DNA from: a virus
Lineage: Duplodnaviria; Heunggongvirae; Uroviricota; Caudoviricetes
DNA length: 37,588 nt
Direction: 5' to 3' (one strand)
Virus record (IMG/VR): IMGVR_UViG_2563366827_000004
Location: 1-37,588 of that record
In this document: positions 13,432-36,888 of the stretch, piece after piece
Layout: every line of letters begins with the position of its first letter
Position numbering within the stretch: the stretch's first letter is position 1
Translations under genes and position numbers: made by a program
The notes under the pieces: generated by a model
Database searches by the model: none
The model's input: only the letters and a program-made list of their open reading frames with translations
What the model was told of the DNA's origin: nothing

Positions 13432-15636
13432 TTACTGCTGTGGTTGTTGCTGAGTTGATTTTTGCAGGATGCTGCTGATGTCCATGCGCTGCGCATGGCC
13501 CTGTGCCTGACTTTTCAGGACAAGCTCTGCATCAGCACGGGCATTATCTCCTTGCTGTTGCTGGAACTGTCCGAGCAGTTTCAGAGCCTCGCGGATATCA
13601 GATTTCTGCTGACTATCGGCAGATGCGAGTATTTTCACAACATTTGCCGCTGCAACCTGAGCATCCGTCTGTGCCTGGAATGCTTTAACCTGAATGGCTG
13701 CCTGCTCGTTCTGCGCTTTCTGCAATTCAGCCTGACCAGCAAGAAGCTGACCTTGCGCTGCAACCATAGCCGGATCTGGCTGACTGGCCTGTTGTTGTTT
13801 CGCCTGTTCAACCATCTGCTGTTCTTCAGGCGTTCTCGGCTTGATAACGCCAGACAGAAGCAACTGATTGCGGTTGTATTCTTTCAGGTCGTTCATCCCT
13901 TCGCCGTCCATATTGTCGAGAATCATAGACGATACAAGGTCGTGCTTCGGCGTTCCTGGTGGGATAAGTGCCAGCATGGAAAGTAACGACTTAACCGTTG
14001 CATCACGGCGAGTAGCGAACGACTGACCAACATCGACAGTCACTTCATAGTTACCCTGCGAAAGGTCGTTAAGCGCGATAACCTTCCCTGTCTGACGGTC
14101 AACCACTTCACCTGTCATCAGCGCCACGTCATCGCTGCCGTCCTCATTAACGATACGCATCGGCGTATCACTGCCATAGACCTCACGCGCCATAGAAAGC
14201 CACACGACGCCAGCGCGGCGCATGGATTTAGCCATGTTGTCCATGTAGATATAGGACTGCGTATCCATCCGGTTAAAAATGCTATCAACGGTATCGGTGG
14301 CGATGTTGCTCGGCATGTTCTCAAGCTGCGACGCACCTGTAATTTGCTGAATAGCCGTTCCGGTGTACTGCAATAGCCCGGCAAGAGCAGGAGGCATTTG
14401 TGTCGGAGGTGTCCAGCCAGCAACCTGAGCCTCTGAAATGACCGTTCCGTTTTTGTCCTTCTTGCTGGTCATGGGAAGAACTGCAGGTCTTTTCTTATTC
14501 CTCTCTGCCCAGTGATTCATTAATGGACCGGGAATGAAATCAACATCCACGATAGGAATGCCATCACCGCCAGCCTGAGTAGCGTTATCTGCAATCATGG
14601 AAACCATCAGGTTCTCAAGACGCTGTGCATCCATCGCTTTTGCTGCGTGGCCTTCGATTCGCTCCTGATTATCAACAAATGAACGACGCCCATATACCGG
14701 GATGAGAGGAATATGTTCGCCCGGAATACGCTTAGGTTCTTCCAGCCATTCAGCGCCAGACAGAAGACCGCAATAAACTCTGCGTTTCTTCACCGTCCGC
14801 TCACCGATCAGTTCGAATGCACCATCGGTTAGCTCATCGACAATATCTTTGATTTGATCTTCATCATAGATTGCCGTTTCTCCGCTAACAGGGTTGCGCC
14901 ATGCCGTGAGCTTCACCTTCTCTATGCGAACTTCGTAGTAGCGCCCAACATAGATGGCATCTGGCGTTGACCAGTCATATTGAGTGCCAGTGTCATCACG
15001 AGAAAGGCTTGCCGCGATGGAATCAGGGTATTCAGCCTCGAACGCTTTGGGCGTCATGGAGAACATTTCCATAGCCCACATAGCATCAGAGCGGTCATAT
15101 TGCTTGCTGTCCTGATCGAAGAAGACGCATGTCGCTGGGTCGTAAACAGGAAGAAGGCTGATGCGTCGCTGCTCGTTACTCGGGTCCATTTCATCTTCGT
15201 AATCGGCACACATGCGGAAACAACCGAATCCGCCCGTTACGGCATCATCAAATGCGTTATCACACGCTTCACCACCGGATGTTTCCTGATAGTCAGCGCG
15301 GAATTTGCCGTTCATCTTTTCGGCTAACGCTTCCGATGCCTTATCGTCCTTCGGCCTGAATTTAACGCTGATGCGATTCTGTCGATACTCGCCAATGATG
15401 CGATCACATTCACGGGCAATCTTATTCAGTTCAAAGCGCGGATAATGCTCAAACCTGCCTTCATCAAATGAGTAACCAGCGCTTGTGCTGCCTTCCCACT
15501 GTGCGCCGGATACCCGGACGAAACGTTGAGCCTCAATAATCTGCTCACGCATATCCTGCGTTGCTGACCAGGCATTATCAAAGTTGCACAGCACCTTGCG
15601 ATGCCAGTCAGTCATCTTTCTATCATCAGCCATCAT
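13432..15636 (-). CDS. Portal protein, P22 gp1-like
   Basis: Conserved blocks RRVY, GEHIPLIPVYG, PDPAMVAAQGQLLAGQAELQKAQN match recalled P22 portal. Start placed at ATG 15636 after GGAG; the track's 15648 start is TTG. Confidence 0.85.
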   Translation of the reverse strand: MMADDRKMTDWHRKVLCNFDNAWSATQDMREQIIEAQRFVRVSGAQWEGSTSAGYSFDEGRFEHYPRFELNKIARECDRIIGEYRQNRISVKFRPKDDKASEALAEKMNGKFRADYQETSGGEACDNAFDDAVTGGFGCFRMCADYEDEMDPSNEQRRISLLPVYDPATCVFFDQDSKQYDRSDAMWAMEMFSMTPKAFEAEYPDSIAASLSRDDTGTQYDWSTPDAIYVGRYYEVRIEKVKLTAWRNPVSGETAIYDEDQIKDIVDELTDGAFELIGERTVKKRRVYCGLLSGAEWLEEPKRIPGEHIPLIPVYGRRSFVDNQERIEGHAAKAMDAQRLENLMVSMIADNATQAGGDGIPIVDVDFIPGPLMNHWAERNKKRPAVLPMTSKKDKNGTVISEAQVAGWTPPTQMPPALAGLLQYTGTAIQQITGASQLENMPSNIATDTVDSIFNRMDTQSYIYMDNMAKSMRRAGVVWLSMAREVYGSDTPMRIVNEDGSDDVALMTGEVVDRQTGKVIALNDLSQGNYEVTVDVGQSFATRRDATVKSLLSMLALIPPGTPKHDLVSSMILDNMDGEGMNDLKEYNRNQLLLSGVIKPRTPEEQQMVEQAKQQQASQPDPAMVAAQGQLLAGQAELQKAQNEQAAIQVKAFQAQTDAQVAAANVVKILASADSQQKSDIREALKLLGQFQQQQGDNARADAELVLKSQAQGHAQRMDISSILQKSTQQQPQQ

Positions 15637-17129
15637 CCAACTCCGCAAGGTATGTTGTAGCTTGAGTAATCAATCTCTTTAGGATCTTTGATGTCTCGCA
15701 TCTGTATTGCAAAACGCCTCATCATGTAGCCATAGCGAACAGCAGAAAGGATGTCGTCATTTAGCTTGACGATCTTCCCGTTCTCATCGCGGTGATACAG
15801 GCGAAACTCTTCAAAGAATGGCTCGCAGGTGTTAAATACCTTGAAACGACCGTCGAGCATCATGTCGCGTATCTCTGCTATCCCGGGTTCGACCGCATTA
15901 CCTCCATCAGGCCATGTTGCATGATCTGGCAACATGTCGAACCCAGCGTCGGCGTATTGTTCCTTGAGCTGAGCGCCGCCTCCCTTTTCGTGCTGATGCC
16001 CGTCATGAGGCCAAGCCGTAGGGGTGTTTTTGCTCCATGCTTTAACAGCACTCCATGCCTCTGTCGCCTTCTTCTGTTTGGCCTTCCAGACGCGAGAAAG
16101 ATAAATCACGTCCTCGTCTTTATCCCACCAAAGCTGGATGTGTGCCTGTGGGTGATCCCATCCGAAGTCCATTGCATTGATGACGTAGAAGTGATCAGGA
16201 CACTCGAACGGCTGACACTTAATCGTCTCTTCCGGTATCTGGAAGATTCGACCGCTACCCATCGTAGGAATACCGCGAGCACGCGCCTCTCTCTCATGCT
16301 CAGGATAGGATGCGATGATTTGCTCTTTCTGCTCGTCGGTGTAGTGCTCAGCGTCATAGATGGTCATGTTGACCACTTTCTGCGACTTGCTGGGATTCTT
16401 CAGGAACTTGGTAACAACGTCAGACATCCCCATCAGCGGGGTAAACGTCAGAATTGAGAATTGCCCGTATTTGTTGGTACGGGTAAGGCCTTCGCCATAA
16501 ATGCTGTATGGTGGCTCTTCGTCAAACCACACGCCGTGGATTGTGTCACCCTGCCAGCGAGCACGGCCTTGCGAGTATGGTTTGAAGTAGCAGATTGAAA
16601 TGCCATCTTCAACGCCATCAGCTGTATGATGCTTAACCAGAAGATGATCAACAAGGTTCGGAAAGAAAGGAGACTTCTTCCAGCTAATGATGTCTTCTTT
16701 CGGTATGGAACCGTAGCCAGGCTCATCATTCTCTTCGATACGACCGCACAGGATGCGTTGAGTCGTTTTGGTTACAGTCTCGTTTGTCTCGCCACCAATC
16801 CAGAAGACAACAGGCTCATAGAAACGCTTACCTTTCCACTCACCGCCATATTTACCATCAGCTGGATAGCCTTTTGTGCCCGGATAACGCCCGGTAAGGT
16901 GAAACGCGACTTCAGCAGCACCAGTAAATGACTTACCAAGCTGGTTACCAGCCATAAAACATCGCTCTGGATAGTCATGCCCGGCGTCGATGAACTCACG
17001 CTGTTTGCTGTATGGCGTAAATTCATATAGCAGGTGTGTGTTCCGGTAGTTCTCTTCTTCTTCGAGTAGCTCGAGCAATTCGATTTGCTCTTCGTCGCTC
17101 AGGTTATCAAGAATCGCGTCCAGTTCCAC
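15633..17129 (-). CDS. Terminase large subunit
   Basis: 498 aa between TerS and portal; Walker A-like [11 protein letters not shown] start at 17129 after AAGGAG, overlapping TerS by 23 nt. Confidence 0.75.
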
Positions 17130-17595
17130 GGTTGAATAGCTCCTTGATACGAGAGCGTCGCTTATCGCGATCTCCCTTATCAGGTGTCACGTCTTCAACT
17201 TGCGACTGCTCTTTGAGGCCCAAATCACGGGCGATGATGTTAGCGTTGAGAAGGTCAGCGGCTGCGCCAGAGAATTTCTGGTCGTAGATGATGTCTTCCG
17301 CTCGTGATGTGACGTCAGAAAAACCTTCCATTGACCGGAAGGTTCCCCATGTTTGCCTGGTGATATCAAGGAAGGTACACAATCCTGAAATAGTCATGGC
17401 TCGCATCTTAGGGACATTAGCCTTAATTATTTCTCCCTGATATGAAAATACCTTACCCTCCCATAGTGGGTTATCATCAGCCCACTCGAAGTATTCACAA
17501 CAAGCAGCCCACAGCGCCTCAGGCGATTCGAATTTAGGATTTCGCCCATGACTACTGCGGGCCTCCCAAAATCGGTTGCCCTTTGGTGCTGCCAT
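17107..17595 (-). CDS. Terminase small subunit, P22 gp3-like
   Basis: 162 aa; [38 protein letters not shown] matches the recalled P22 gp3 N-terminus. Confidence 0.9.
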
Positions 17596-17674
17596 ATTGA
17601 TTATTTCCCTTCTGCTTGCTTATCCCATTCATCGCGGAATTTGGATGGGTTGTCGAAACCTTGAGTTGCCATGT

Positions 17675-17854
17675 TTATGCTCCGGTGGTGAACAGGTCTA
17701 ACGCTTCCTTCGATTTACGCACCGCTTCGATAGTGCGGGTCGTGATATCTGAATTAGCGCCGCCTGACTGGAAGTGAATTTTGAATAGCTCAAGCTTCAG
17801 TTCGTCAGTGCCAATGAACTGAAATGCTTCTTCTGCGGCTGCGTTCTGGTTCAT
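17675..17854 (-). CDS. Possible small protein upstream of TerS
   Basis: 59-aa ATG ORF (MNQNAAAEEAFQF...), below the track cutoff; weak RBS. Confidence 0.25.
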   Translation of the reverse strand: MNQNAAAEEAFQFIGTDELKLELFKIHFQSGGANSDITTRTIEAVRKSKEALDLFTTGA

Positions 17855-18083
17855 GACCAGTTTGCCGTTTATCCGTTAAAAGGGATATCAGTTAAGTTAT
17901 CCCGTGTAGGGTATAAGCCATTATCGAGACCACTCATTGAATGGCCTCTGCAATAACCGATGTCTTTCCATCAGTCCGCCACCACAAAGAATCTTTTTTG
18001 CCATCAGGCAGGAGGTTCATCTTTCAGTGGCTGCCAGTGTTATTTCCCCACTTACTGGCTTGGGTTGTTTCGTGGTACTGCTG

Positions 18084-18626
18084 TTAATTAGTGAGTCCGG
18101 GGATTACGGTTTGCCCGTGCTGTTCAAGGCGTTCAATTCTCGCCAGTAGCTGAGGCTTCTTAATTTTTCCCCAGCGATTGAGCAGGCGACCTGACATGCT
18201 GGCAACATCCTTCTCTTTCATGTACTCCAGCATTACGGCATTTCTCTCTTCTTCAAATTGACGATGACCAACCTGAAGCATGGCGTACATCCAGTTAAAT
18301 GCGTTGATGTAAGCAATTTTGATACGCATTGCTTCTTTTTTGGTGTAGGACATAACCAAAAGCATCAACCCATCCTTGCGGAGACGGTAGAATTTTTGCG
18401 GCTTACCATTCTGTAACTCATTGTTTTTATAGCAAAGCTCAAAGTTGAGCTTTGTATCAAACTCAGGAGGGCAAGCTTCTATGGTTCGCTCAATGTCACG
18501 GACTACGTTCTTCGGCAGCTTTCCAAATGCTTTTGCCACCATAAAAGAATCTGTAACCGGATCGTTGTTTGCTACAAAAATTAGGTCTCTGAAATCTATA
18601 TCGTTAACAACGGTTGGGTAGTTCAT
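18084..18626 (-). CDS. rha: Rha-family phage regulatory protein
   Basis: 180 aa; N-terminal block DFRDLIFVANNDPVTDSFMVAKAFGKLPKNVVRDIE resembles the Rha signature. Confidence 0.65.
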   Translation of the reverse strand: MNYPTVVNDIDFRDLIFVANNDPVTDSFMVAKAFGKLPKNVVRDIERTIEACPPEFDTKLNFELCYKNNELQNGKPQKFYRLRKDGLMLLVMSYTKKEAMRIKIAYINAFNWMYAMLQVGHRQFEEERNAVMLEYMKEKDVASMSGRLLNRWGKIKKPQLLARIERLEQHGQTVIPGLTN

Positions 18627-18774
18627 TGCGTCTTTACCTTTTAGAAAGATGAGCCTGTTCGCACAGAAAAGCCGTCCCCGAGATGGTCGCCACCATATAC
18701 GGCAATTCTCAGGCTCAGCTTTCTGAAAGACTCGGGATTGTTACGCGCTGCGATGCGCGGTTTACTGCAGATGT

Positions 18775-18798
18775 AAAAAAGCCCCGCAAATGCGAGGC
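18775..18798 (-). terminator. Intrinsic terminator downstream of the lysis cassette
   Basis: Minus-strand RNA GCCUCGC-AUUU-GCGGGGC followed by UUUUUU; 7-bp stem with one G-U pair. Confidence 0.5.
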
Positions 18799-18972
18799 TA
18801 AATCCTGGTATTTGTAATGACTGGCTCTTATCTCAACGCAGACCCTTACCGCGCGCCAGATGCTCAATATCAAGCATCAGCAATGAGATGTTTAATCTGG
18901 ATTCACTCCAGAAGTGATCACCACCCTGTCTACAGAGCCAGATGTGAAGGATGATGAGTAAAATTATCGCTA

Positions 18973-19410
18973 TCATCGAAGGCATTGCGTCCTGATGTAC
19001 TCCTGCAGGTAGTTAACCTGCGCGGTTATCCTGTCTATTCCACTTCGGAGACGGTAATAATTGAGTTCAGCATCTGCTGTAAGTCTTGGGCTTTCTCCAT
19101 CGCCCATGCTGCTGGCTCCGGTCGTTGACTTTGCACAGGTGGCGGCGACTTGCAGGCGCTTACGACCAGCAGAAACATCAGCACGGAGACTTTCGATAGT
19201 CGCGTTAGCATCAGCAAGCTCCTTTGTGTATCTGGCATCGAGTTCAGCTACATCACGTTGACGCTTCTGCATATCAGCGATGATGGATGTGGCTTTATCG
19301 CGCTGCTCTTTGTAGGTCATGGCGTTATCACGGTAATGATTAACAGCCCATGACAGGCAGACGATGATGCAGATAACCAGAGCGGAGATAATCGCGGTTA
19401 CTCTGCTCAT
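18973..19410 (-). CDS. Rz: Spanin inner-membrane subunit Rz
   Basis: 145 aa; [30 protein letters not shown]... near-identical to recalled lambda Rz N-terminus. Confidence 0.9.
19035..19211 (-). CDS. Rz1: Spanin outer-membrane lipoprotein Rz1, embedded in Rz in the +1 frame
   Basis: Embedded ORF with lipoprotein signal [20 protein letters not shown] and proline-rich mature part, as in lambda Rz1. Confidence 0.8.
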
Positions 19411-19883
19411 ACCTCAATCTCTCTGACCGTTCCGCCTGCTTCTTTGAATTTTGCAATCAGGTTGTCAGCCTTATGCTCGAACTGACCATAACCAGCGCCC
19501 GGCAGTGAAGCCCAGATATTGCTGCAACGGTCGATAGCCTGACGGATATCACCGCGATCAATCATCGGTAAAGCGCCACGCTCTTTAATCTGTTGCAGTG
19601 CCACAGCGTCCTGGCTTTTCGGAGAGAAATCTTTCAGGCCAAGCTGCTTACGATAGGCATCCCACCAACGGGAAAGAAGCTGGTAACGGCCTGCAGCTGT
19701 TGATTTGAGTTTGGGGTTTAGCGTGACAAGTTTGCGAGGGTGATCTGAGTAATCAGTGAATAGCTCTCCGCCTACAATGACGTCATAACCATGATTTCTG
19801 GTTTTCTGACGTCCGTTATCAGTCCCCTCTGACCACGCCAGCATATCGAGGAACGCCTTACGTTGATTATTGATTTCCACCAT
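19407..19883 (-). CDS. R: Endolysin, lambda R lytic transglycosylase
   Basis: 158 aa, near-identical to recalled lambda R ([45 protein letters not shown]...). Confidence 0.95.
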
Positions 19884-20190
19884 CTTCTACTCCGGCTTTT
19901 TTAGCAGCGAAGCGTTTGATAAGCGAACCAATCGAGTCAGTACCGATGTAGCCGATGAACACGCTCGTTATATAAGCGAGATTGCTACTTAGTCCGGCGA
20001 AGTCGAGAAGGTCACGAATGAACCAGGCGATAATGGCGCACATCGTTGCGTCGATTACTGTTTTTGTAAACGCACCGCCATTATATCTGCCGCGAAGGTA
20101 CGCCATTGCAAACGCAAGGATTGCCCCGATGCCTTGTTCCTTTGCCGCGAGAATGGCGGCTAACAGGTCATGTTTTTCTGGCATCTTCAT
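19867..20190 (-). CDS. S: Holin/antiholin, lambda S
   Basis: 107 aa, near-identical to recalled lambda S, with the MKM dual-start motif. Confidence 0.95.
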
Positions 20191-20588
20191 GTCTTACCCC
20201 CAATAAGGGGATTTGCTCTATTTAATTAGGAATAAGGTCGGTTACTGATAGAACAAATCCAGGCTACTGTGTTTAGTAATCAGATTTGTTCGTGACCGAT
20301 ATGCACGGGCAAAACGGCATGAGGTTGTTAGCGCAACCTCCTGCCACCCGCTTTCACGAAGGTCATGTGTAGAAGGCCGCAGCGTAACTATCACTGATGA
20401 ATTCAGGATAGCCAGTGGCTACGGCTCAGTTTAGGTTGTGCTGTTGCTGGGCGGCGATGACGCCTGTACGCATTTGGTGATCCGGTTCTGCTTCCGGCAT
20501 TCGCTTAATTCAGCACAACGATAAGAGCACTCGGTGCATTTAAGCCAAGCCCCATAAGGGAGAATGCTCTTACCTGTTGCACAGATAT

Positions 20589-20781
20589 AAAAAATCCCGA
20601 AACCGTTATGCAGGCTCTAACTATTACCTGCGAACTGTTTCGGGATTGCATTTTGCAGACCTCTCAGCCTGCGATGGTTGGAGTTCCAGACGATACGTCG
20701 AAGTGACCAACTAGGCGGAATCGGTAGTAAGCGCCGCCTCTTTTTATCTCACTACCACAACGAGCGAATTAACCCATCGTT
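20589..20781 (-). ncRNA. Lambda-type 6S RNA (pR' leader) ending at tR'
   Basis: Region matches the recalled lambda pR'-tR' segment almost base for base. tR' hairpin AAUCCCGAAAC...GUUUCGGGAUU plus U6 lies at about 20589-20646 on the minus strand. Confidence 0.6.
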
Positions 20782-20787
20782 GGGTCA

Positions 20788-20816
20788 AATTTACCCAACT
20801 TTATTCAAAAAGTCAA
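20788..20816 (-). promoter_or_regulatory. Late promoter pR' (-35 TTGACT, -10 TAAATT, 17-bp spacer) with Q-utilisation site
   Basis: Minus-strand TTGACTTTTTGAATAAAGTTGGGTAAATTTGACCC matches the recalled lambda pR'. Confidence 0.8.
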
Positions 20817-36787: not shown

Positions 36788-36888
36788 TGACCATGGCAGC
36801 AGCAGATCGCAACTAACAATCCTCGCACTCGCGGGGATTTCTTTTATCTGAACTCGCTACGGCGGGTTTTGTTTTATGGAGATGATAA

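Follow-up and report, generated by a model that had tools for sequence, protein, structure and literature searches.

The locus considered here raises the question of whether a gene lying between the lysis and the packaging genes of a phage, with a strong intrinsic terminator in front of it, forms a transcription unit of its own or belongs to the late operon. The DNA (IMG/VR virus record IMGVR_UViG_2563366827_000004; the whole stretch of 37,588 nucleotides (nt) is called the window) was found to represent a mosaic P22-like phage of E. coli with IME10, CUS-3, HZ41, Kapi1, E212 and Sf101 as nearest relatives, and at least 80% of its region 17000-20300 was present in 36 complete E. coli genomes. 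In the original prediction, made from the sequence of the window, a Rha-family gene was regarded as a moron-like insert between a lambda-type lysis module and a P22-type packaging module. The locus is likely to be the usual slot for accessory genes in the lambdoid late operon, situated between the spanin and the packaging genes and here holding Rha, with expression by Q read-through and under the control of a leader. The arrangement of a terminator and Rha between lysis and packaging genes was known before and can be found annotated in several records. The leader RNA was the only element for which no description was found; it may be a modest lead, its function being conjecture.

All positions are given in window coordinates, and the late genes of the examined part were all found on the minus strand. 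In the direction of transcription, Q was followed by pR', the qut/6S leader, tR', S, R, Rz/Rz1, a 50-amino-acid open reading frame (ORF), the terminator, the leader and Rha, followed by the presence of 219 nt of non-coding DNA, a DUF2560 remnant, 79 nt, the small terminase gene (TerS), the large terminase gene and the portal gene (Table 1). The pR' sequence reads as lambda/P22 pR'. The predicted order Rz-terminator-Rha-TerS was thus found overall, whereas the 50-amino-acid ORF (PHROG 11822) before the terminator had been overlooked and TerS is not the immediate neighbour of Rha, from which it is separated by the spacer, the DUF2560/orf80 remnant and the 79 nt. The assignment of the lysis genes to the lambda type and of the packaging genes to the P22 type was borne out (GP3_package match).

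Polymerase that has been modified by Q reads through intrinsic terminators. Since a lambda-type Q gene is present in the window together with pR', qut and tR', a separate transcription unit for terminase and coat does not follow from the terminator after the lysis genes, and this terminator should not be annotated as closing the late operon. According to the epsilon34 genome paper (PMC2629481), it is Q that turns on the late operons of lambdoid phages, and the late mRNA of P22, as mapped by experiment, runs beyond the lysis end of the map into its other end. In the proposed mechanism, transcription would start at pR', 2.2 kb upstream of the slot; polymerase modified at qut would pass tR' and then likewise the terminator at 18775-18799, and Rha, the DUF2560 remnant, terminase and the head genes would be expressed from a single Q-dependent late transcript. 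Unmodified polymerase, arising from prophage leakage or in early infection, would halt at 18775-18780, and the terminator would act as an insulator which silences the packaging genes together with a DNA-binding protein that may be harmful. The large hairpin of the leader (H3) would then hold down translation of the slot gene; alternatively, it would be a site for RNA processing or stability.

The content of the slot was found to be variable. In a census of 230 loci with the shared leader, the slot gene was Rha with ORF11CD3 in 107 loci, KilA-N, alone or with ORF11CD3 or P63C, in about 82, P22_AR_N with ORF11CD3 in 11, T5orf172/MUG113 in 11, a longer Rha type in 5, ANT in 2 and HNH_3 in 2, the slot genes being made of Bro network domains plus small nucleases. 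The Bro network concept is reportedly that of Iyer, Koonin and Aravind. The network consists of domain-swapping DNA-binding proteins of phages (domain list in PMC10111431). A homologue of Rz was found directly 5' of the slot, on the same strand, in at least 154 of the 205 loci with enough flank. The leader and the terminator were common to P22-like, phi80-like and Stx-type phages, and what had been taken for an upstream region of Rha's own was found to precede KilA-N, P22_AR_N, ANT, T5orf172/GIY-YIG and HNH genes as well.

The joints were mapped by blastn of the window against nine relatives. With epsilon34 (GIY-YIG/T5orf172) and E212 (KilA-N), homology was found up to 18622 and resumed at 18084-18106; the swap of the slot gene is therefore precise to the ORF, which is exchanged as a whole, from its start codon to its stop, homology ending at the start codon. 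The same leader was found in front of a KilA-N slot gene in E212, SF11, HK620 (hkbK) and Tbat2_3. In Sf6 and Huey, everything was replaced from the terminator on (18776 or 18811), and the homology with CUS-3 and Sf101 was lost at 17668-17677, before TerS, where that with E212 continues at 99%. The recombination joint that had been proposed was therefore recovered, at 18622, 18084-18106 and 17668-17677, but these joints frame the ORF and not the 150-bp region. Beside slot genes outside the Bro network, namely the 'anti-CRISPR' ORFs of Huey (locus L004, 997-1543) and gene 66 of Sf6 (locus L006, 547-1223), the leader hairpins H2 and H3 were absent, and the terminator hairpin was kept in Huey and missing in Sf6; the leader therefore travels with the Bro-network and nuclease cassettes.

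The position of rha between lysis and packaging genes has been known in phi80 and P22 since the 1980s-90s. In P22 (NC_002371), 15/Rz1 was followed by the terminator, rha (orf201), orf25, orf80, orf59c and gene 3, with the same order and strand logic as in the window. Its terminator after Rz (GCCUCGC-AGAU-GCGGGGC, then GUUUUU) is the same hairpin as that of the window and is unannotated in the P22 record. P22 was also found to share a homologous H2, a covarying H3 and a TerS of the gp3 type, whereas it differs in the diverged N-terminal domain of its Rha, in about 600 bp more before orf80 plus orf59c, in an intact orf80 and in a lysozyme of another type. In phi80 (JX871397; the rha prototype), Rz was followed by a 'putative rightward transcription terminator', the leader and rha, in the same late-operon position, and the leader was 84% identical to that of the window over 178 nt; unlike the window, phi80 belongs to the siphoviruses and packages by cos, its Rha has a different C-terminal region and the DNA after rha is unrelated.

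Closer relatives were found to have the same layout. Sf101 and CUS-3 contained about 98-100% DNA identity to the window from holin to DUF2560, the Sf101 leader being 100% identical over 214 nt, but both have TerS of the Sf6 type. In epsilon34 the same hairpin is annotated as a Rho-independent terminator, and a GIY-YIG/T5orf172 gene replaces Rha. The DUF2560 gene was intact, unlike in the window, in Sf101, CUS-3, epsilon34 and vB_EcoP-720R6, the last being another of the P22-like phages compared. The order Rz, terminator, leader and Rha-type gene was also found in HK639, in the Stx-type phages POCJ13 and Lys12581Vzw, and in Hafnia, Klebsiella and Erwinia phages.

Lambda had been cited as a phage in which the late transcript runs from the lysis genes straight into the head genes. 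This is not so: between Rz and cos, about 2 kb of accessory DNA (bor, lambdap78 and lambdap79) precedes the packaging end of the Q-dependent late operon, but no Rha gene is present and bor lies on the opposite strand with its own expression. Profile searches of lambda found no homologue of the leader or of the terminator. Morons are reportedly defined after Juhala and Hendrix. Like morons, including the 'ant moron' of P22, the slot has variable content, a fixed place in the late operon and lower guanine plus cytosine (GC) content (PMC2629481), whereas it was found to differ from them in having a terminator 5' of the gene and a leader that is common to all cassettes; a simple sigma-70 scan detected no promoter of its own.

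Two systems may offer a functional resemblance. In the sib/tI retroregulation of lambda, an RNA structure beside a late-expressed gene decides whether the read-through transcript undergoes translation or degradation. In satellite P4, RNA structure and terminators beside a Bro-network gene of the eta/kil region (CI RNA, seqA) make the same decision (PMC10111431). No sequence or Rfam relation was found between the leader and either P4 or lambda sib/tI.

The terminator was described in the original prediction as a 7-bp stem plus U6, which was accurate; the scan found 8 pairs, of which 6 are G-C, with a 4-nt loop and U6, against a U-tract criterion of at least 5. The arms were found at A18799-C18792 (5') and G18787-T18780 (3'), with the loop at 18791-18788, and the free energy was -14.6 kcal/mol (z = -3.4 versus shuffles). 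This 8-kb stretch is rich in patterns that resemble terminators (16 versus 7.5 +/- 3.0 expected), so the pattern alone is weak evidence. Among 247 homologous loci, collected by DNA pattern scans of viral contigs and from annotated phages, a hairpin with a T-run was found at the equivalent place in 228 (92%); it mostly lay 47-51 nt 5' of H3 (range 35-54), and its stems were of at least 10 types. The stems included GCCUCGC/GCGGGGC, GCCUCGG/CCGGGGC, GCCUGAC/GUCGGGC, GCCUCAC/GUGGGGC, GCCAGC/GCUGGC, GCCCACGU/GCGUGGGC, GCCCGG/CCGGGC and GCCUUGC/GCAGGGC. In an alignment of 20 sequences (A2), in which the terminator is helix 1, both sides were changed in 5 of the 8 pairs with pairing kept. As the position is conserved and the stem changes are compensatory, the hairpin is, judged by comparative sequence analysis, an intrinsic terminator maintained by selection; it is already annotated in the records of phi80, HK639 and epsilon34.

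Two further observations concern terminator-like sequences of the window. Another hairpin resembling a terminator (UCCUCGC-ACU-CGCGGGGA, with a U-rich run after it) was found at 36815-36855 on the plus strand, at the early-region end of the window, through the terminator part of the leader profile (nhmmer E = 0.007). The T-tract of tR' and the next bases (TTTTTTATATCTG, 20581-20595) resemble those of the post-Rz terminator (TTTTTTACATCTG, 18766-18780; TTTTTTATATCTGCA in the CUS-3 version), which could be chance or a common terminator context.

The leader between the T-run and the Rha start codon was found to contain 148 nt (18627-18774), in agreement with the earlier estimate of about 150 bp. 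Indels of 1 nt were present, GGGGACGGC being found in the window and Sf101 versus GGGGCGGC in CUS-3, E212 and most others; these indels, together with class-specific frame-shifted ORFs and stops, rule out the leader as a coding sequence. A simple sigma-70 consensus scan of the late strand in 18627-18800 found no promoter-like site at 9 or more of 12 matches, and candidate -35/-10 pairs in the leader, judged by eye, had the wrong spacing. No match to Rfam 15 was found at the gathering score in the window and six related loci, and the E-value mode gave weak matches of at most 20.2 bits that were driven by the terminator hairpin. The region is not mentioned in the Pas small RNA survey. The prophage small RNAs AgvB and AsxR were considered and ruled out, as they are located at the pR'-proximal moron site (PMC4104026). 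Leaders nearly identical to that of HK620 were found in three contigs of metagenome-assembled genomes labelled Cellvibrionaceae, Bacillota and Collinsella (loci L262, L270 and L271), which are probably mis-binned Enterobacterales phage contigs.

The leader RNA was predicted by RNAalifold, from the 20 representatives of A2, to contain the terminator followed by a small hairpin (H2) and the long irregular hairpin (H3). The structure was derived from the same alignments that were used for the covariation tests, in which both sides were changed in 15 of the 32 predicted pairs of A2 and 96.9% of the cells were paired versus at most 50.7% with slid partners; the compensated pairs numbered 15 versus at most 6 when slid, and the observed covariation score was reached by none of 500 shuffles. 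The same core was given by an alignment of 27 H3 sequences (A3), including those of Pantoea, Chimaeribacter and Serratia prophages from a genome scan, with 96.1% of the cells paired (57.4% at most when the partners were slid) and compensation in 9 of 20 pairs. The H3 pairs with both sides changed numbered 9-10 in A2 and A3, and six divergent sequences, each folded singly, were found to take on this architecture as well (free energies of -36 to -46 kcal/mol; z between -1.9 and -5.1). G-U pairs were found on the sense strand only, which points to a fold that acts as RNA and not as DNA.

The closing helix of H3 was formed by UCUUU (18730-18726) and AAAGG (18641-18637), the latter being the Shine-Dalgarno sequence of the slot gene, and this (C/U)CUUU-AAAGG helix was conserved in 24-26 of the 27 representatives. 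In H2, a change of both sides to UGCGU/ACGCA was found in one locus (L139), with more variants in two others (L175 and L190). An 11-bp 'direct repeat' (two copies of GCGCAYNNCAN) had been considered as a protein-binding site and was rejected in favour of the hairpin because UGCGU/ACGCA (L139, L175) and GCGCUU/AAGCGU (L190) keep the inverted and not the direct symmetry. A helix enclosing the terminator and H2 (GGAUU/AAUCC), which appeared in the fold of the window, was likewise rejected, the same terminator flank being seen with unrelated downstream leaders. It is proposed tentatively, with somewhat less than even confidence, that the leader is an undescribed and widespread cis-regulatory RNA, made of the terminator, H2 and a Shine-Dalgarno-sequestering H3, which gates the post-lysis slot genes across Enterobacterales. 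If so, one covarying RNA structure would lie ahead of many, often toxic, DNA-binding genes in hundreds of phages, and would give a handle on how the accessory genes of late operons are kept at a low dose.

Several alternatives were weighed against a late-operon slot with Q read-through and a regulatory leader. Rha could be an autonomous moron with its own promoter, the lysis transcript ending at the terminator and terminase and coat being initiated separately or partly independently of Q; a strong conserved terminator directly past the lysis cassette, the GC dip within the Rha ORF and the variation in slot genes among related phages would all fit, the slot having been found to contain Rha, KilA-N, GIY-YIG/T5orf172, P22_AR_N, ANT, HNH or unrelated genes. 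This is nevertheless very improbable, as Q-modified polymerase is established to ignore intrinsic terminators and no promoter-like site was found on the late strand in 18627-18774. The late operons depend on Q, moreover, and the late mRNA of P22 runs past the lysis genes (PMC2629481). P22 and phi80 share the layout, which is that of the family in general, the upstream region is not specific to Rha and no terminator was called after Rha on the late strand (18083-17596), against the downstream terminator that a moron would have; the view of Rha as an autonomous moron inserted between the modules is accordingly not supported. Still less credence is given to the leader as a mere recombination linker ('boundary sequence') for slot exchange, without RNA function. 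The breaks in homology coincide exactly with the border between leader and ORF and with the stop codon, boundary sequences have been annotated at other places in CUS-3 and Sf6, and terminator types, H2 types and H3 classes have been shuffled from locus to locus, but a pure linker would not keep pairing to the extent found in A2, nor would the G-U pairs be confined to the sense strand or the differing terminator stems always fold.

A post-read-through module of RNA processing or stability, with for instance a putative RNase III site in H3, is also unlikely, if less so than the two preceding readings. The terminator and H2 would guard a new 3' end of the lysis mRNA, and the lysis, slot and structural segments would have half-lives independent of one another, somewhat as in sib/tI. 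H3 is long, mostly double-stranded and stable (-36 to -46 kcal/mol) with compensatory changes, the three hairpins are conserved together, one after another, at a spacing of about 47-51 nt, and the stretch 3' of the slot gene is strongly structured as well, whereas H3 is broken by bulges with no continuous stem of about 22 bp, and the closing helix, which takes in the Shine-Dalgarno sequence in 24-26 of 27 representatives, points to translation. Processing would be compatible with the late-operon slot and does not exclude it. Translational coupling, in which translation of a short leader ORF through H3 melts the hairpin and frees the slot Shine-Dalgarno sequence, has a very slight chance of being correct. 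The window contains a 20-codon ORF (ATG 18697 to TAA 18635), its end lying 8 nt ahead of the Rha ATG, leaders of the POCJ13 type and of Erwinia phages contain ORFs of 24-27 codons starting with MxxE(E/D)AG, and the stop of the leader ORF overlaps the slot ATG in E212 and SF11. Within a class, however, the 1-nt indels described above break the frames; in the P22 class a stop codon comes after 3 codons, the ATG used by the POCJ13 class is missing from the window and phi80 classes, and no conserved peptide was evident.

The reading as a late-operon slot under leader control is itself weakened by several points. Read-through by Q at the post-Rz terminator is inferred by analogy from lambda Q, and activator-dependent or weak promoters would escape a simple sigma-70 consensus scan. 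In the P22 class, the closing helix leaves the Shine-Dalgarno sequence uncovered. The covariation, although the leader copies number about 250 in phages and prophages of many Enterobacterales, stems from about four classes (window/phi80, POCJ13/Stx, P22 and Erwinia), with few independent events, and within a class the leader is highly conserved, loops included, so that protein binding or another sequence-specific role is possible. The IHF consensus WATCAANNNNTTR was found to have no match in the leader or in the entire window, which leaves the published link of rha to IHF without a place.

That link comes from the finding that the Rha proteins of phi80 and P22 block phage DNA synthesis or growth in hosts lacking IHF (himA/hip), as quoted in PMC4936722; the rha note of the phi80 record (JX871397) reads 'DNA synthesis inhibition in IHF- hosts'. 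Both sources also assign rha to the late operon. The leader may bear on the harm done by rha in such hosts. The Rha-family identity in the original prediction was confirmed by Phage_pRha (PF09669), with 77.1 bits versus a curated cut-off of 29.9 over residues 25-113 and nearly the whole profile, and by a match to PHROG 518 'Rha-like transcriptional regulator' (E = 1.5e-81). A second domain, ORF11CD3, was found at residues 125-176 (91.2 bits versus a cut-off of 25), so that two Bro network domains are joined in the Rha of the window; elsewhere in the same post-lysis slot, ORF11CD3 was joined to KilA-N or P22_AR_N. Rha sits directly past the lysis/spanin genes in the late operon, which matches its position in phi80 and P22. 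By its family, the protein is most likely a DNA-binding regulator or an antirepressor-like protein. A sequence search of PDB with Rha gave no significant match.

The protein was found to be 98% identical to Rha of POCJ13, 57% to that of P22 and 35% to that of phi80. The DNA homology with P22 rha was confined to the C-terminal half plus the downstream spacer (17898-18314, 88%), and because P22 shares the C-terminal half only, Rha is itself a domain mosaic. The GC content was 0.41-0.43 in the Rha ORF versus 0.47-0.51 in the flanks. The N-termini of eight Rha proteins were found to align from a conserved MN(Y/N/E) start, whereas the annotated starts of rha fall within the leader in CUS-3 (locus L001, 1978-2589), P22 (locus L009, 2076-2681, beginning at GTG) and phi80 (locus L010, 1932-2486). 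These upstream starts are explained by the 1-nt indels of the leader. Both the N-terminal alignment and the indels place the true start at the conserved MN(Y/N/E) ATG, with which rha should be annotated, and P22 'orf201' would then contain about 178 amino acids.

Table 1. Positions of the late-region features in the window, in the order of transcription.
Feature	Position	Strand	Evidence
Late antiterminator Q, 207 amino acids	20859-21482	-	Pfam Antiterm, 192 bits; Q in CUS-3, Sf101 and epsilon34 records
Lambda-type late promoter pR' (TTGACT-17-TAAATT), then qut/6S leader	20788-20816	-	Promoter scan; annotated in epsilon34
tR' of 6S leader, CCCGAAAC...GTTTCGGG + T6, taken to be lambda tR'	~20589-20644	-	Direct sequence reading
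Holin S, lambda family	19867-20190	-	Pfam Phage_holin_3_1, 105 bits
Endolysin R, 158 amino acids	19407-19883	-	Lysozyme/endolysin in CUS-3, Sf101 and epsilon34, ~97% DNA identity; no Pfam match at E <= 0.01
Rz i-spanin	18973-19410	-	Pfam Phage_lysis, 126 bits; Rz and Rz1 annotated in relatives
Rz1 frame embedded in Rz	ORF 19035-19238	-	ORF list
Conserved ORF of 50 amino acids, overlapping the Rz stop codon	18833-18985	-	PHROG 11822, E = 3.9e-38
Intrinsic terminator, AGCCUCGC-AUUU-GCGGGGCU + U6 (18780-18775)	18775-18799	-	Scan, fold, conservation
H2, predicted small GC hairpin, CGCGC-AUCGCA-GCGCG	18744-18759	-	RNAalifold, A2 columns 63-77, 100% paired
H3, predicted irregular hairpin of ~90 nt	18637-18730	-	Single-sequence folds; alignments A2 and A3
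Rha, 180 amino acids, intact	18084-18626	-	Pfam, PHROG
Conserved non-coding stretch, 219 nt	17865-18083	-	blastn; common to phages with different slot genes
DUF2560/orf80/hkbM remnant, 59 codons	17675-17854	-	Pfam DUF2560, profile positions 18-72 only
Small terminase, P22 gp3 type	17107-17595	-	Pfam GP3_package; 99% DNA identity to E212
Large terminase	15633-17129	-	Pfam Terminase_6N and Terminase_6C

The non-coding stretch between Rha and the DUF2560 remnant was predicted to be structured (-69.8 kcal/mol, z = -3.39) and to contain a hairpin (GGGAUA...UAUCCC + U4) near 17866-17893, just before the start site of DUF2560. A part of the equivalent stretch is described in the epsilon34 record as a remnant of ST64T orf118. 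The DUF2560 remnant was found to begin at the internal Met21 with no obvious Shine-Dalgarno sequence, a deletion of 61 bp at 17864/17865 having taken the ATG with its ribosome-binding site and the greater part of the first 18 codons. The gap was present versus every relative examined (CUS-3, Sf101, E212, P22, Sf6, epsilon34 and Huey), and the gene should be annotated as truncated in this phage.

The 50-amino-acid ORF was found to end just 5' of the terminator. It has counterparts in gene 65 of Sf6, gp67 of epsilon34 and gp62 of Sf101, and was absent in P22 and phi80. Its family, PHROG 11822, is listed as of unknown function. The N-terminus was found to be hydrophobic, and the product could be an additional membrane or lysis-associated peptide.

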